Below, one piece after another: positions 8,203 through 12,774 of a stretch of DNA of 64,000 nt; position 1 is the first letter of the stretch; every line of letters begins with the position of its first letter. This DNA is from Pseudoxanthomonas sp. GTDB taxonomy: Bacteria; Pseudomonadota; Gammaproteobacteria; Xanthomonadales; Xanthomonadaceae. The position numbers and the translations under genes were made by a program. Location of the stretch: the NCBI GenBank assembly GCA_047600885.1, contig JASGKE010000002.1:47233-111232 (forward strand), written 5' to 3'. The notes beneath the pieces were generated by a model, which did not search any database, had not been told where the DNA came from, and saw only the letters and a program-made list of their open reading frames with translations.

Positions 8203-8210
8203 GGACGCCC

Positions 8211-8921
8211 ATGAATACCCAACCCAACGACCATATCGTGAAGAGCTACGACGAAGAACAGCGCCGCATCGTGGCGGAGATCGTCCGCATGGGCGAAACC
8301 GCCGTCGCCCAGCTGGAGGCCGCGCTGGACGTGGTCGAACGCCGCGACGACAAGGCCGCCCAGCGCATCATCGCCAACGACGAAGCCATCGATGCCATCG
8401 AGCACCAGGTGGCCCATGACGTGATGCACCTGGCCCTGCGCGGCCCGATGGCCCGCGACCTGCGCGAGATCCTCGCCGGGCTGCGCATCCCGGCCGACAT
8501 CGAGCGCATCGGCGATTACGCGGCGAACGTCGCCAAGCGTTCCATCGCCCTGAACGTTTCGCCGCCGATGCCGCAGATCACCGGTCTGCGCGCGCTCGGC
8601 AAGCTGGCCGCCCGCCAGGTCCGCGACGCGATCAGCGCCTACCAGAGCGGCGATGCCGAGTCCGCCGTGCAGGTGCGCGAACGCGACGCCGAGCTGGACG
8701 CGCATTACACCGCGCTGTTCCGCGAACTGCTGACCTACATGATGGAAGACCCGCGCAACATCACGCCGTGCACGCACCTGCTGTTCATGGCGAAGAACCT
8801 GGAGCGCATCGGCGACCACGCGACGAACATCGCCGAGAACGTCTGGTTCCTGGTGCATGGCGAACAGCCGCTGCCGCCGCGGGCCAAGCGCGACGACACC
8901 AGCACCACCGGCGCCGTCTGA
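8211..8921 (+). CDS. phoU: Phosphate signalling regulator PhoU
   Basis: Internal ATG at 8211 within ORF 7845..8921. The product MNTQPNDHIVKSYDEEQ... contains two PhoU repeats with ERIGDYAANVAK and ERIGDHATNIAE. Confidence 0.92.
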   Translation: MNTQPNDHIVKSYDEEQRRIVAEIVRMGETAVAQLEAALDVVERRDDKAAQRIIANDEAIDAIEHQVAHDVMHLALRGPMARDLREILAGLRIPADIERIGDYAANVAKRSIALNVSPPMPQITGLRALGKLAARQVRDAISAYQSGDAESAVQVRERDAELDAHYTALFRELLTYMMEDPRNITPCTHLLFMAKNLERIGDHATNIAENVWFLVHGEQPLPPRAKRDDTSTTGAV

Positions 8922-8950
8922 TCCACACGCCGCACTGCAACACGCGACAG

Positions 8951-8976
8951 GCCCCGCTCCGGCGGGGCTTGTCCGT
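8951..8976 (+). terminator. Terminator-like hairpin after phoU
   Basis: gccccgc-tccg-gcggggc (8951-8968), followed by ttgtccgtt. Confidence 0.5.
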
Positions 8977-9015
8977 TCAGGGCCCCGCGCAAACGGCGCG
9001 CTAACGTCGCGCGGC

Positions 9016-9021
9016 TACAAT
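9016..9021 (+). promoter_or_regulatory. Possible -10 element (TACAAT) for the RiPP precursor gene
   Basis: TACAAT lies 48 bp upstream of the ATG at 9069, and a GGGAGAG Shine-Dalgarno sits just before the start. The -35 region is weak. Confidence 0.3.
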
Positions 9022-9068
9022 CGCGCCACGCTGGTGCGGATCCCCCGCACGCCCTGGGAGAGAACACG

Positions 9069-9479
9069 ATGTCCAAGACCACCAAACCCGCCGCCGTCGC
9101 CGTCGCGCTGGCCGGCGGCATCCTGCTGGCCGGCTCGAGCTTCGCGATGGAACCGCTGGCGCAGGGTTACCTGCTGGCCGCACCCGAAGCCGCGAAGGCG
9201 GGCGAAGGCAAGTGCGGTGAGGGCAAATGCGGTGAAGGCAAGTGCGGCATGGCCAAGGCCGACACCGACAAGGACGGCAAGGTCTCGCAGACCGAGTTCG
9301 CCGCCGCCCATCCGGACAAGGCGGCCGACTTCGCCGGCATCGACACCAACAAGGACGGCTTCATCGACGCGGCCGAACACAAGGCCCATGCCGGCGCCAA
9401 GGGTGCCGAGGGCAAGTGCGGTGAAGGCAAGTGCGGCGAGGGCAAGTGCGGCGGCGACAAGAAGACCGGCGACAAGTAA
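9069..9479 (+). CDS. hvfA: Secreted EGKCG-repeat / EF-hand precursor protein (HvfA-like RiPP metallophore precursor)
   Basis: 136-aa ORF with a Sec signal (AVALAGGILLAGSSFA|MEP). Residues 46-60 form three consecutive EGKCG units, and residues 114-128 form three more. Two canonical 12-residue EF-hand loops are present, DTDKDGKVSQTE (65-76) and DTNKDGFIDAAE (92-103). The tail is Lys-rich. The gene lies immediately upstream of the DUF692 and DUF2063 genes. Confidence 0.85.
   Translation: MSKTTKPAAVAVALAGGILLAGSSFAMEPLAQGYLLAAPEAAKAGEGKCGEGKCGEGKCGMAKADTDKDGKVSQTEFAAAHPDKAADFAGIDTNKDGFIDAAEHKAHAGAKGAEGKCGEGKCGEGKCGGDKKTGDK
9204..9248 (+). repeat. Coding tandem repeat, 3 x 15 bp (EGKCG block 1)
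   Basis: gaaggcaagtgcggt gagggcaaatgcggt gaaggcaagtgcggc. The units differ only at wobble positions. Confidence 0.95.
9408..9452 (+). repeat. Coding tandem repeat, 3 x 15 bp (EGKCG block 2)
   Basis: gagggcaagtgcggt gaaggcaagtgcggc gagggcaagtgcggc. This is a near-identical direct repeat of block 1, 204 bp away. Confidence 0.95.
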
Positions 9480-9493
9480 GCCCATGGCCTCGG

Positions 9494-9512
9494 GCCCCGG
9501 CTGAGCCGGGGC
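9494..9512 (+). terminator. Intercistronic stem-loop between the precursor and the modification genes
   Basis: gccccggc-tga-gccggggc, a perfect 8-bp GC stem, followed by only tt. It sits 15 nt after the precursor stop and 17 nt before the DUF692 start. Confidence 0.5.
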
Positions 9513-9528
9513 TTGCGGCATCCACCGG

Positions 9529-10380
9529 ATGACCACACCCCTCCCCACCGCATCGGCCGGCCTTGGCCTGCGCCGCGCGCTGCTCGACGATCTGTTGGCG
9601 GCGCCTGCGGGCGCGTTCGATTTCCTCGAATGCGCGCCCGACAACTGGATCGGCGTGGGTGGTCGCTATGGCGACGCGCTGCGCGCGCTCTCGGTGCGGC
9701 ATCCGATCACCTGTCACGGCCTGTCGCTGTCGCTGGGCGGCATGGCGCCGCTGGACGACACCTTCCTCGCACGCACACGCCGGTTCCTCGACCAGTACGA
9801 CGTCGCGTTGTACAGCGAGCACCTCAGCTACTGCGCGGACGACGGCCATCTGTACGACCTGATGCCGATCCCGTTCACCGAGGAAGCGGTCCACCACGTC
9901 GCCGCACGTATCCGCCAGGCGCAGGACGCGCTGGGCCGGCGCATCGCGGTGGAGAACGTCTCCTACTACGCCGCGCCCTACCAGGCGATGGCGGAGGCCG
10001 ATTTCATCGGCGCGGTCCTCGACGAGGCCGACTGCGACCTGTTGCTCGACGTCAACAACATCTTCGTCAACGCCATTAACCACGGTTACGACGCGCGCGC
10101 GTTCCTGGCCCGCATGCCGTCGGCGCGGATCGCCTCGTACCACGTCGCCGGGCACTACGACGAAGCCGACGACCTGAAGGTCGATACGCACGGCGCGCCG
10201 GTGAAGGACGACGTGTGGTCGCTGCTGTCGCTGGCCTACGCCACCCATGGCGTACGGCCGACCCTGCTCGAGCGCGACTTCAACTTCCCGCCGTTGGCCG
10301 AACTGGCCGCGGAAGTGCAGCGCATCCGCGACCTGCAAGCGCCGCATGCCGGCGCGACCGCGCGCGCCACCCATGGCTGA
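9529..10380 (+). CDS. hvfB: DUF692-family multinuclear non-haem iron oxidase (MNIO; MbnB/HvfB/BufB-like)
   Basis: 283-aa ORF with landmarks I recognise from the DUF692 TIM-barrel family: GLGLRRAL near the N-terminus, [39 protein letters not shown] and YHVAGH. Confidence 0.85.
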
Positions 10381-11134
10381 GCGCCTGCACGACCAGCAGT
10401 TCGCGTTGTCGCGGCACCTGCGCGATCCGTCGGCGAATCCGCCGCCGCCCGGCATCGAGGAACGGCGGCTGGCGATCTATCGCGACCTGTTCTTCAACAA
10501 CATCGAGGGCTTGCTGGCCGGCAATTTCCCGGTGATCCGCAAGACCCTGGGCGACGATGCATGGCGTCGGCTCGTGCGCGACTTCTACGCGAACCACCGC
10601 AGCCACACGCCGCTGTTTCCGGAAGTGGCACGCGAGTTCATCCGCTTCCTCGAGGGTCGCGCGCCCGACCCCGATACGCCGTGGCTGCGCGAGCTCGCGC
10701 ACTACGAATGGGTGGAACTCGCCCTGCAGATCGCCGACGACGCCACACCGGCGCACGACGCCGAGGGCGACCTGCTCGCCGGCATCCCGGTGGTCTCGCC
10801 GTTCGCCTGGGCGCTCGCGTATCAATGGCCCGTGCACCGCATCGGGCCGGACTACCACCCCGACTCTCCGCCGAACGCACCGACCTGCCTGCTGGTACGG
10901 CGTGGCGACGACCAGCAGGTCCACTTCTCCGCCCTCTCGCCCCTCGTCTACCGCTTGATCGAGCTGCTCGGCGAAGGACGGCACACCGGTGCGGACGCGC
11001 TCCGCCAGCTGGCCGACGAAGCGGGCGTCGACGACGCCCCCGCCTTCATCGAACAGGGCACCGCGATGCTGGCGCGCATGCGGCAGGAAGGCACGCTGTT
11101 GGGTACCGACCCAGCAGCACCTCAGAAGCGCTGA
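10373..11134 (+). CDS. hvfC: DUF2063-family partner protein (HvfC/BufC/MbnC-like substrate-recruiting subunit)
   Basis: Internal ATG at 10373 of ORF 10247..11134, overlapping the DUF692 stop by 8 nt (ATGGCTGA). The product [19 protein letters not shown]...[24 protein letters not shown]...[19 protein letters not shown] matches the DUF2063 N-terminal pattern. Confidence 0.8.
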
Positions 11135-11164
11135 CTCGCGGTTGGGTTTCCAGCAAAGGAAGCA

Positions 11165-12178
11165 GTGCCGACCTCTGCTACCCTTCCGCGCATGGAAAAC
11201 ACCGCCGAAACCGCCCCCACCACGCCCATGGCCCGCCGCTTCCGCGGTTACCTGCCCGTGGTGGTCGACGTGGAGACCGGTGGCTTCGACTGGAACCGCC
11301 ACGCCCTGCTCGAACTGGCCGCCGTGCCGCTCGACCTGGACGAGAACGGCTTGCTCGTGCCCGGCACCACGTCCAGCGTGCACCTGCATCCGGCGCCCGG
11401 CCTGGAGATCGATCCCAAGTCGCTGGAAGTCACCGGTATCGACCTGGACCATCCGTTCCGTTTCGCCAAGCACGAGAAGGAGGCGCTGGACCACGTGTTC
11501 GCGCCGGTGCGCGCGGCCGTGAAGAAGCACGGCTGCCAGCGCGCGATCCTGGTGGGCCACAACGCGCACTTCGACCTCAACTTCCTCAATGCCGCGGTGG
11601 CCCGCGTCGGCCACAAACGCAACCCGTTCCATCCTTTCAGCGTGTTCGACACGGTGACGCTGGCGGGCGTGGCCTATGGCCAGACCGTGTTGGCCCGCGC
11701 CGTGGCTGCCGCGGGCTTCAACTGGAATGCGGAAGACGCCCACTCCGCCGTCTACGACGCGGAGCAGACCGCGCGCCTGTTCTGCACGATCGCCAACGCG
11801 TGGCCGCGGCCTGCGGCGACGTCATCGGAGCGTGCCGACGACACTGTCACGCTATACCGCCCCACCGGACCGGAAGAGCTCCAGCTCCTGGTGCAGAGTG
11901 ATTTCAAGCGCTGGCCTCCGCGCTTGCCGGAGCAACCGATCTTCTACCCGGTGACCAACGAGCAGTACGCCGTCGACATCGCGACACAATGGAACATCAA
12001 GGACAGCGGCGTGGGGTACGTCACACGTTTCCAGGTCCGTAAGAGTTTCATGGCGAAGTACCCCATCCAGAAGGTCGGCGGCGACCACCACACCGAATGG
12101 TGGGTGCCGGCGGAAGACCTCGAAGCGCTGAACGACAACATCGTCGGGCCGATCGAAGTGATCGGCGAGTACCGCTAG
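11165..12178 (+). CDS. rnt: Ribonuclease T (DEDDh exonuclease) fused to a ~110-aa C-terminal domain of unknown function
   Basis: The N-terminal ~215 aa contain [27 protein letters not shown] and [14 protein letters not shown] (DEDDh motifs, collinear with E. coli RNase T). The C-terminal segment [109 protein letters not shown] is in the same frame with no stop. The start is uncertain: GTG 11165, ATG 11192 or ATG 11228. Confidence 0.8.
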
Positions 12179-12195
12179 AGCGAGGAACGGCGATA

Positions 12196-12774
12196 GTGGA
12201 ACGCGCGCTCGGCATCGCCCACCACGCCACCTGGCTCTTCTTCGTCGGCTACTGGATCTGGAGCGCACGCGGCATCAAGACGCCGGTGCGCACGCAATCG
12301 CCGTGGCTCCGCCTGTTCGCCTACTGGTTGCCGTTGGTGCTGGCCGTCGCGCTGCTGGGACCGGGTGAGTGGTTCGGCGACAGCGTGCTGCAGGAGCGCT
12401 TCGTACCCAAGCACGTGACGGTGAAAGCGATGGGGTTGGCGTTGACCGTGGCCGGCATCGCATTCGCCTGCTGGGCGCGCCACCTGCTGGGGCGCAACTG
12501 GAGCAGCGAGGTGCAGATCAAGCAGGACCACCAGCTAATCCAGGCGGGCCCTTACCGGTGGGTGCGCCACCCGATCTACACCGGCTTGTTGCTGGCTTTC
12601 TTCGGCACCGCCCTGAAAGTCGGCGATTGGCGCGGCCTGCTGGCGGTCGCCATCGTCGCAGCGTCATTCTGGTTCAAGCTGCGGCAGGAGGAGCGCTGGC
12701 TGCTCGAACGCTTCGGCGCGCCGTATGCCGACTACATGCGCCGGACGCGCGCACTGCTACCGGGCGTGCTCTGA
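12196..12774 (+). CDS. Isoprenylcysteine carboxyl methyltransferase (ICMT/PEMT) family membrane protein
   Basis: GTG at 12196 within ORF 12097..12774. The product has several TM helices and the family motif GPYRWVRHPIYTGLLLAFFG...EERWLLERFGAPYADY. Confidence 0.75.
   Translation: MERALGIAHHATWLFFVGYWIWSARGIKTPVRTQSPWLRLFAYWLPLVLAVALLGPGEWFGDSVLQERFVPKHVTVKAMGLALTVAGIAFACWARHLLGRNWSSEVQIKQDHQLIQAGPYRWVRHPIYTGLLLAFFGTALKVGDWRGLLAVAIVAASFWFKLRQEERWLLERFGAPYADYMRRTRALLPGVL

Follow-up and report, generated by a model that had tools for sequence, protein, structure and literature searches.

Fontiphorin, oxazolin and gonophorin, the products of the EGKCG-bearing precursors FonA, HvfA and NgoA, carry 5-thiooxazoles and bind copper (PMC13097082; 10.64898/2026.06.05.730506), and the class of RiPPs (peptides synthesised ribosomally and modified post-translationally) that they represent has been named the captophorins, with more than 20,000 clusters estimated in RefSeq (PMC13097082). 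In the FonABC system of Fontimonas thermophila, FonB and FonC form a stable heterodimer (FonBC), which carries three Fe through purification and installs 5-thiooxazoles in vitro on EGKCG repeats; its minimal substrate needs two tandem EGKCG units, with Cys at position 4, a small residue at position 5 and no Pro (PMC13097082). A survey by Leprevost et al. (Microb Genom 2025) reported, among some 2,000 Buf_EGKCG/oxazolin precursors, two types, of which the second has two EF-hand_5 domains C-terminal to a short unstructured EGKCG domain; these authors tie the EF-hand type to Pseudomonas aeruginosa EfhP and propose for such chimaeras a role in Ca2+ homeostasis or signalling besides copper (PMC12452194). 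EfhP itself (PA4107) is reported to bind Ca2+ specifically, and without it Ca2+ homeostasis and stress responses are disturbed; a study of 2014 pointed out that it is encoded upstream of a DUF692 gene (PA4106) and a DUF2063 gene (PA4105) (PMC4053335). Here we describe a related three-gene operon, A-B-C, in a stretch of 64,000 nucleotides (the window) from Pseudoxanthomonas sp. (GCA_047600885.1, contig JASGKE010000002.1, positions 47,233 to 111,232), in which a predicted captophorin precursor carries an EF-hand pair between two blocks of cysteine repeats.

An earlier note on this DNA had placed three co-oriented genes between phoU and rnt, and we confirmed this arrangement, with three open reading frames (ORFs) on the forward strand and with flanks identified by TIGR02135 and TIGR01298 (Table 1). 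The three frames were called coding because their codon-position G+C content (0.86–0.89 at third positions, GC3; about 0.45–0.52 at second positions, GC2) fits the pattern of a 67% G+C genome, and on the same measure the long antisense and alternative-frame ORFs over the cluster (GC3 0.44–0.72) were rejected. The start of the feature as first drawn, 9016, is the first base of a TACAAT hexamer lying 53 nt before the ATG of A, and not a gene start. The 8-nt overlap of B and C is as had been claimed, the ATG of C lying at 10373 and the TGA of B at 10378..10380 (ATGGCTGA). Ribosome-binding signals range from GGGAGAG before A to a poor one before B and none before C; the missing Shine-Dalgarno sequence, together with an HvfC profile match that begins at residue 8 from the chosen ATG, is consistent with translational coupling of C to B. 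Neither B nor C has a signal peptide, unlike A, for which one is predicted.

The identities proposed for the two downstream genes passed the profile searches suggested for them. B matches PF05114 (MbnB_TglH_ChrH) at 340 bits and the HvfB-family model NF003818 at 430 bits (cut-off 360), and C matches PF09836 (90.9 bits), PF22106 (NGO1945_C; 97.9 bits) and the HvfC model NF050145 (308 bits; cut-off 142). B falls below the cut-offs of the other models for multinuclear non-haem iron oxidases (MNIOs), namely BufB NF050167 (268 against 310), MbnB TIGR04159 (53.3 against 325), ApyH and ChrH. Its nearest solved structure is 3BWW, a DUF692 protein of Histophilus somni (E = 1.4e-71), and C matches 3DEE (Neisseria gonorrhoeae NGO1945; E = 2e-7). 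The motifs quoted for B from the first reading (GLGLR, SEHLSYC at residue 96, VENVSYY at 141, DVNNIFVNA at 174 and YHVAGH at 204) are all present, and B has a complete set of iron ligands: H63, H98, E142, D174, N177, H205, D219, H221 and E248. Eight of these were aligned to H90, E133, D163, N166, H192, D208, H210 and E239 of MbnB (7TCR), whose ligands are listed from the crystal structure (PMC9060507); as the MbnB alignment begins only after H63, that residue was located by the HGLSLS motif that B has in common with 3BWW. When compared by BLASTP with the fon and hvf proteins given in the supplement of PMC13097082, B is 63% identical to FonB and 47% to HvfB, and C is 46% identical to FonC and 30% to HvfC, in the latter case over the N-terminal domain only.

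The six EGKCG motifs claimed for the 136-residue A were found at 9204, 9219, 9234, 9408, 9423 and 9438 (+), and that EGKCG is the motif modified in Haemophilus influenzae HvfA is borne out by the literature (PMC11252979). In a six-frame translation of the whole window the motif is confined to these six sites, as compared to a mean of 0.02 matches in 50 shuffles. Both blocks satisfy the FonBC substrate rules, with three tandem repeats each. At the DNA level they are 15-nt tandem repeats, of 2.9 copies with 86% matches in block 1 and 3.1 copies with 87% matches in block 2. The EGKCG count of block 1 varies between two and three among proteins 90–96% identical to that of the window (P0003, P0005, P0009 and others); such variation, taken with the imperfect 15-nt units (86–87% matches), suggests recent gain or loss of whole repeat units. 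In an alignment of 50 homologues of A, 61–99% identical to the query, the invariant residues of block 2 are E119 to G125, C127 and G128, in the last two EGKCG units. A matches NF050137 (KCGExKCG_twice, HvfA family) in four stretches at 34.1 bits (cut-off 19.5). It has 1937 homologues at E ≤ 1e-3, and those that bear names are HvfA-family metallophores or EF-hand proteins of Pseudoxanthomonas and Luteimonas.

The N-terminus of A has the shape of a Sec signal peptide: a basic n-region (MSKTTK), a hydrophobic core of 16 residues and an SFA|M site that meets the -3/-1 rule, with F25 invariant and A26 nearly so in the 50 homologues. The description of A as secreted in the earlier note thus depends on a heuristic reading of this N-terminus, which would leave a mature protein of 110 residues (10,974 Da, pI 5.6); H. 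influenzae HvfA, for comparison, is cleaved by signal peptidase I in Escherichia coli (PMC11252979). Immediately after the predicted signal peptide stands PLAQGY, in which G33 and Y34 are invariant. Of 77 precursors, drawn from all three architectures described below (repeat-only, sandwich and EfhP-type), 71 have the pattern [LMIV]xxGY; FonA has DLGAGY, and H. influenzae HvfA is without it. PLAQGY is a candidate contact for the RiPP recognition element (RRE) domain of HvfC. A single-site alanine scan of FonA found no individually essential leader residue (PMC13097082).

Table 1. Features of the A-B-C locus, in coordinates of the window
Feature	Position	Strand	Basis
phoU, upstream flank	8208..8921		TIGR02135, 207 bits
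Terminator-like hairpin after phoU	8946..8973	+	12-bp G+C-rich stem with one G·U pair, 4-nt loop, no clear U tract
TACAAT, candidate -10 hexamer, 53 nt upstream of the A ATG	9016..9021	+	Inferred, weak
GGGAGAG, Shine-Dalgarno-like, ending 6 nt before ATG 9069	9056..9062	+	Read from sequence
Gene A, HvfA-family precursor (EGKCG|EF-hand chimaera), 136 aa	9069..9479	+	NF050137, EF-hand Pfam matches
Predicted Sec signal peptide, aa 1-26, cleavage SFA|M	9069..9146	+	n/h/c-region shape read from sequence
PLAQGY, conserved motif right after the signal peptide	9153..9170	+	Alignment
Repeat block 1, (EGKCG)x3: Cys49, Cys54, Cys59	9204..9248	+	
EF-hand pair, aa 61-111	9249..9401	+	Pfam, alignment, AlphaFold2
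Ca-binding loop 1, DTDKDGKVSQTE, aa 65-76	9261..9296	+	
Ca-binding loop 2, DTNKDGFIDAAE, aa 92-103	9342..9377	+	
Repeat block 2, (EGKCG)x3: Cys117, Cys122, Cys127	9408..9452	+	
G+C-rich stem-loop in the 49-nt A-B spacer	9487..9519	+	11-bp core stem, 3-nt loop, no U tract
Gene B, HvfB/FonB-type MNIO (DUF692) maturase, 283 aa	9529..10380	+	PF05114, NF003818
Gene C, HvfC/FonC-type partner (DUF2063 N-terminal + NGO1945_C/RRE domain), 253 aa	10373..11134	+	PF09836, PF22106, NF050145
rnt, downstream flank	from 11165 (ORF 11165..12178)		TIGR01298, 328 bits

Four elements of a captophorin (MNIO-PME1) cluster are found here: an HvfB-family MNIO, its full iron ligands, an adjoining type 1 partner with DUF2063 and RRE-like domains, and, directly upstream, a precursor of the Lys-Cys (EGKCG) group with at least two tandem repeats. 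We consider it probable that A-B-C is a chromosomal, vertically inherited captophorin (HvfABC/FonABC-type) RiPP operon that makes a copper-binding thiooxazole product. The arrangement of three genes without DoxX is that of FonABC, and FonA resembles A in its signal-peptide-like N-terminus, its D-L-x-x-G-Y motif and its tandem EGKCG units, its product bearing multiple copper-binding 5-thiooxazoles such as would be expected here. FonA differs in having seven Cys in three repeat groups joined by short Lys/Ala-rich linkers and no EF-hand (PMC13097082), whereas A has three plus three Cys around a predicted calcium module, and the host of fon belongs to the order Nevskiales rather than Lysobacterales. 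HvfXABC of nontypeable H. influenzae likewise has six modified EGKCG Cys, a Sec signal peptide, an MNIO with a DUF2063/RRE partner and Cu(I) binding, the modification, the signal peptide and the copper binding being predicted in our case; in HvfA, unlike A, AEGKCGEGKCG occurs three times at the C-terminus only, and there is an N-terminal disulfide but no GY motif and no EF-hand (PMC11252979).

Two more distant systems named in connection with this locus were considered and set aside. Bufferins (BufABC; PMC11626156) share the enzyme superfamily and the partner type, and their Sec-exported precursor, 5-thiooxazole chemistry and copper-stress role may by analogy extend to the A-B-C operon; their precursors are, however, of the DUF2282 (Buf1) or Buf_6/12Cys (Buf2) kind, and the operon is without their sigma/anti-sigma or DoxX genes. 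Membership was rejected, A having no DUF2282 match and B scoring below the BufB cut-off. Methanobactin synthesis by MbnABC involves the same MNIO fold and iron ligands and a four-electron oxidation of Cys to a copper-binding heterocycle, which by analogy is what we would expect of B; it differs in its MbnC partner, which is not of the DUF2063/RRE type, in a short leader-core precursor without a signal peptide, in its oxazolone/thioamide chemistry, and in serving copper acquisition rather than detoxification. This membership, too, was rejected on the score of B against TIGR04159.

By extrapolation from FonABC, HvfABC and the bufferins as regards docking, oxidation, Sec export and Cu(I) chelation, we propose the following course. 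A would be translated in the cytoplasm and docked by HvfC, possibly via the conserved [LMIV]xxGY segment, and HvfB would there oxidise Cys49, 54, 59, 117, 122 and 127 to 5-thiooxazoles, each site losing 4 Da and the precursor as a whole 24 Da. Sec would then export the modified, still unfolded chain, with signal peptidase I cutting after SFA26, and in the periplasm the EF-hand pair would bind Ca2+ and fold; we infer this last step because the loops are canonical and invariant and because a Sec substrate must remain unfolded until export. The two flexible thiooxazole arms may then bind Cu(I) and so buffer copper or oxidative stress, while the stem-loop in the A-B spacer probably holds precursor transcripts in excess over enzyme transcripts. 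The formation of 5-thiooxazoles, the binding of copper and Sec export after modification are thus predicted from characterised relatives. The role of the product is the least certain part of the proposal and is most likely the buffering of copper or oxidative stress, perhaps linked to Ca2+.

A number of observations weigh against this reading. The expected chemistry is carried over from proteins that are 47–63% identical, and no EF-hand-containing precursor has so far been shown to be modified. A does not reach the cut-off of the strict HvfA equivalog model (NF050188; 21.4 bits against 95), so that by its profile matches it belongs to the HvfA family by domain and is not an orthologue of oxazolin. 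Its N-terminus could, from its sequence, be a membrane anchor as well as a cleaved signal peptide; predictors disagreed over the N-terminus of EfhP (PMC4053335), and EF-hand chimaeras were described with a transmembrane helix in the 2025 survey (PMC12452194). We found no metal-responsive operator or regulator for the operon, and its promoter is only weakly indicated. Several Cu(I) ions are bound by unmodified HvfA as well (PMC11252979), fully copper-loaded peptides aggregate (PMC13097082), and the physiological role of EGKCG peptides is uncertain even for the characterised members of the class.

While the earlier note was right about the repeats, it overlooked a canonical EF-hand pair, which lies within the 53 residues between the two (EGKCG)3 blocks. 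Pfam assigns to A the families EF-hand_5 (34.7 bits, two stretches), EF-hand_1 (33.6 bits) and EF-hand_6 (26.9 bits), each above its cut-off, and both 12-residue loops have the canonical ligands at positions 1, 3, 5 and 12, Gly at position 6 and a hydrophobic residue at position 8. D65, D67, D69, G70, E76, D92, D96, G97 and E103 are invariant among the 50 homologues. When that alignment was given to AlphaFold2, only residues 59–111 were predicted to fold, as helix-loop-short strand twice (predicted local distance difference test score, pLDDT, 76–88 over the block), and the signal peptide and both repeat blocks had pLDDT below 50. A Foldseek search of the Protein Data Bank gave EF-hand pairs for all of its leading matches, including calcineurin B, calmodulin lobes and polcalcin Phl p 7, with a target-normalised template modelling score of 0.67 for Phl p 7; all matches have E ≥ 0.14 and serve as supporting evidence only, the lack of any at E ≤ 0.001 being due to the shortness of the folded part (about 50 residues). 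Two other resemblances, to lanmodulin (NF053806, 25.3 bits against a cut-off of 135, with Thr and not Pro at position 2 of both loops) and to XopAW (far under its cut-off), were dismissed as generic EF-hand similarity.

The fusion of EGKCG repeats to EF-hands is already known as a class, catalogued in 2025, and A resembles its EfhP-type members (PMC12452194; PMC4053335) in its N-terminal hydrophobic segment, its EGKCG repeats followed by two EF-hand_5 domains with loops 15 residues apart, and its position upstream of DUF692 and DUF2063 genes. At the locus of the EfhP orthologue in Pseudomonas paraeruginosa (L036), the precursor is 49% and the MNIO 74% identical to those of the window. Because the spacing of the loops is 15 residues in both types and the precursors are 49% identical, we take the EF modules of the two types to be homologous on sequence grounds. 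The types part after the second EF-hand: in 17 EfhP-type loci the protein ends in a helical tail of about 25 residues, with the EF-hands at the C-terminal end and Cys repeats on the N-terminal side only, whereas in A a second (EGKCG)3 block takes the place of the tail. In all of the best 120 homologues of A, Cys repeats flank the EF pair on both sides, mostly as two plus three or two plus four. In the literature consulted on these precursors we found no explicit description of this repeat-EF-EF-repeat layout, which we call a sandwich. EfhP-type MNIOs also form a separate clade and do not lie at the phoU-rnt locus, and we found no report that EfhP is modified.

A could instead be primarily an EfhP-like periplasmic sensor or buffer of Ca2+, with the thiooxazole arms accessory to it (e.g., as redox or metal inputs) and a role in Ca2+ homeostasis or signalling rather than in copper buffering. 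Leprevost et al. suggest a Ca2+ role for the chimaeras (PMC12452194), and the Ca ligands of the EF-hands of A are conserved as strictly as the terminal repeats. However, the EF module of the window has neither an output domain nor the C-terminal helix of EfhP, and Stenotrophomonas, Xanthomonas, Lysobacter and Arenimonas have EF-less precursors with the same maturases at the same locus, which implies that the conserved function of the locus needs no Ca2+ binding. We thus regard a primary Ca2+ role as unlikely, while recognising that it is compatible with a captophorin operon. A bolder proposal, which we offer as speculation and would not expect to prove right, is that the sandwich precursor is a calcium-switched copper chelator. 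Under such circumstances the EF core would be unfolded in the low-Ca2+ cytoplasm, which would leave both Cys blocks open to HvfBC and the chain fit for export by Sec, and in the Ca2+-rich periplasm the core would fold and join the two thiooxazole triads into a defined multi-copper site.

The captophorin operon is, as observed from its distribution, native to and old in the order Lysobacterales, because its synteny holds across the order and its GC3 matches that of the neighbouring genes; horizontal acquisition was rejected on these same two grounds. The order pstB-phoU-A-B-C-rnt recurs in Pseudoxanthomonas, Luteimonas, Vulcaniibacterium, Thermomonas, Lysobacter, Stenotrophomonas, Xanthomonas and others, and the order A-B-C is kept in 80 loci. 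In the closest genome, Pseudoxanthomonas sp. Root630, A, B and C are 98%, 92% and 79% identical, respectively, to those of the window. The precursors at the phoU-rnt locus are of two kinds, repeat-only in Lysobacter, Stenotrophomonas, Xanthomonas and Arenimonas and sandwich in Pseudoxanthomonas, Luteimonas, Thermomonas and Vulcaniibacterium. A neighbour-joining tree built from 81 HvfB sequences (without bootstrap, and thus rough) interleaves the maturases of these two kinds, and those of the EfhP type form one separate, non-syntenic clade. The repeat-only precursors of Stenotrophomonas sp. L012 and L028 have two repeat blocks with a low-complexity linker in the place of the EF-hands.

Some genomes depart from this scheme. 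Stenotrophomonas maltophilia genomes carry two hvf-type loci on a single contig (L032 and L070 on NZ_KB907498.1; L054 and L071 on NZ_NEQV01000001.1), the one at phoU-rnt being repeat-only with DoxX and the other, elsewhere, having an EfhP-type EF-hand precursor with a DoxX-like gene upstream. A sandwich locus with DoxX was found on a 163-kb contig (L078, CAVYIJ010000003.1) of a metagenome-assembled genome labelled 'uncultured Halobacteria archaeon', its MNIO being 64% identical to that of the window, and a Pseudomonas-like EfhP-type locus in a genome labelled Pantoea sp. Cy-639 (L035, NZ_VWXI01000014.1); both could reflect an error of binning or labelling, or horizontal transfer. In the EfhP-type locus of the myxobacterium Cystobacter fuscus, the place of DoxX after hvfC is taken by a gene for a ferric-reductase-like transmembrane protein (L041:6572-7096; PF01794, 26 bits, just under the cut-off), which fits the minor cluster variants of Leprevost et al. 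(PMC12452194).

The cluster indeed lacks DoxX, as the earlier note had it, and so does the whole window (best tblastn E = 0.22), but this is not unusual, since the characterised fon cluster consists of A-B-C only. The hvf and ngo clusters do have a DoxX gene (hvfX in H. influenzae), the core genes occur 'in various combinations' in published surveys (PMC12452194), and many repeat-only loci have DoxX placed between C and rnt (Pfam DoxX, 72–78 bits); the gene was not present at the Pseudoxanthomonas, Luteimonas and Thermomonas loci examined. The statement that no family member has been characterised in this lineage holds for Lysobacterales in the searchable literature, but FonB, the 63% identical relative of B from the neighbouring order Nevskiales, has been reconstituted biochemically. 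The name 'HvfA family oxazolone/thioamide-modified RiPP metallophore' is already given by NCBI to homologues of A from several species of Pseudoxanthomonas and Luteimonas. As a whole the system is routine for its class, which is already defined biochemically, surveyed by bioinformatics and built into NCBI annotation models.

The constancy of pstB-phoU-A-B-C-rnt across many Lysobacterales genera could also be read to mean that the operon belongs to the Pho regulon, being transcribed by read-through from pstSCAB-phoU and acting in phosphate or Ca-phosphate chemistry, and the hairpin after phoU, having no U tract, would allow for this. Pseudomonas, Steroidobacter and Cystobacter nonetheless carry the same operon type in unrelated surroundings, as does S. 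maltophilia in its second copy, a strong hairpin and a -10-like element stand between phoU and A, and inspection by eye of 8922..9068, rather than a formal scan, showed no Pho-box-like direct repeat; membership in the Pho regulon is therefore improbable. The region 8922..9068 folds at -74.2 kcal/mol (z = -3.1 against shuffles). A consensus terminator scan does not call the hairpin, and its function as a terminator is presumed; over 8800..11400 that scan gave one terminator-like site, inside B, which is no more than chance, and a sigma-70 consensus scan of the same interval gave no promoter. TACAAT has no matching -35. The hexamer is identical in the closest relative (L001), and 24 of 71 related loci have a TAnnnT hexamer 40–70 nt upstream from where the precursor starts, as compared to 9.7 ± 3.1 (maximum 20) in shuffles. 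When the stretches before the precursor were compared among relatives for a conserved operator, nothing emerged but the positionally enriched TAnnnT and, in some genera, a loose 'TAAC' about 10 nt upstream, and neither is convincing as a metal-regulator site. Directly before TACAAT lies an 11-nt direct repeat of 2.5 copies (CGCGCAAACGG / CGCGCTAACGT / CGCGC; 8986..9012), nearly identical in Pseudoxanthomonas sp. Root630 and unrecognisable in other genera, which could be a regulator site or a product of chance in G+C-rich DNA.

The spacer between A and B folds at -29.1 kcal/mol (z = -2.1). Of the 27 spacers in relatives that measure 45 nt or more, 24 hold an uninterrupted stem of 8 bp or longer and 22 have z below -1.5, the sequences themselves being unrelated; the spacer of L048 has the form of a textbook terminator, with T8. 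In another 50 loci the spacer is short and has no hairpin. The A-B hairpin may be a facultative element of attenuation or stabilisation, by which precursor transcripts would be favoured over those of the enzymes, as happens in many RiPP operons. An Rfam scan of 8850..9600 returned no family, its lone sub-threshold match (mir-638, on GC-rich repeat DNA) being spurious.

As to the heterocycle, the earlier note had allowed for thiooxazole or for an oxazolone/thioamide pair, and it is the former, now assigned as 5-thiooxazole, that stands (PMC13097082; 10.64898/2026.06.05.730506). The oxazolone/thioamide pair of methanobactin was the original assignment for oxazolin (PMC11252979) and is still the wording of NCBIfam names, and, being isomeric with 5-thiooxazole, it would give the same 4-Da loss. 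Since then, however, oxazolin has been reassigned by two laboratories: the Mitchell laboratory revised it, with fontiphorin and gonophorin established as 5-thiooxazoles by alkylation-assisted heteronuclear multiple-bond correlation spectroscopy (PMC13097082), and the original authors did likewise (10.64898/2026.06.05.730506). Together with the 53 bits of B against the MbnB model (cut-off 325), this makes an oxazolone/thioamide product in the window very improbable. The revision also bears on how the product should be recognised: resistance of Cys to alkylation, which had been proposed as a read-out, is wrong, as 5-thiooxazoles are readily alkylated by iodoacetamide (PMC13097082; 10.64898/2026.06.05.730506), and that measure would falsely refute the hypothesis. 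That the cysteines should remain free thiols, in a secreted metallothionein-like chelator or as disulfides, with B and C inactive or acting on another substrate, is scarcely credible in spite of the Cu(I) binding of unmodified HvfA (PMC11252979), given that B has all iron ligands and exceeds the HvfB cut-off, that B and C follow A directly, in apparent translational coupling and in an order kept in 80 loci, and that there is no other EGKCG-coding sequence in the window.

The downstream flank of the operon has peculiarities of its own. The rnt ORF (337 residues) consists of RNase T (TIGR01298, residues 22–216) fused in frame to a C-terminal module of about 120 residues (11813..12178) that is missing from rnt in all 80 related loci (about 210–225 residues). 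DNA similarity to the closest relative ends at 11811, and the extension has a GC3 of 0.40 as compared to about 0.9 in neighbouring genes. The module matches no Pfam or NCBIfam family and is 55–65% identical to stand-alone hypothetical proteins of about 110 residues on plasmids of Streptomyces, Eleftheria, Rhizobium and Deinococcus. Its appearance is that of foreign DNA joined to RNase T where synteny breaks off. The next ORF (12097..12774) encodes a PEMT/ICMT-family methyltransferase (Pfam, residues 111–207) and, when taken from the start of its longest form, runs over the last 82 nt of the extended rnt. Its first 30 or so codons are Arg-rich and non-coding in appearance, and the true start probably lies further downstream.

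Captophorins are among the most numerous RiPP classes, and one more member in a soil Pseudoxanthomonas changes little. The sole feature of some interest is the EF-hand sandwich precursor, alternating with EF-less precursors at one syntenic locus. Were the calcium-switch proposal to hold, the affinity or stoichiometry of copper binding would depend on Ca2+, and copper loading might in turn feed back on Ca2+ binding; this would be a RiPP metal site assembled by a second metal, and the repeated loss or gain of EF-hands at one locus would amount to a tunable design. Regardless of that proposal, the Lysobacterales phoU-rnt locus is a natural series, in which the same maturases are paired with precursors that have or lack an EF-hand core, and as such it is convenient for asking what the EF-hand contributes. 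Whether such precursors are modified also bears on how P. aeruginosa EfhP is interpreted: EfhP has EGKCG motifs and the same maturase genes beside it, yet work on it has treated it solely as a Ca2+ sensor.

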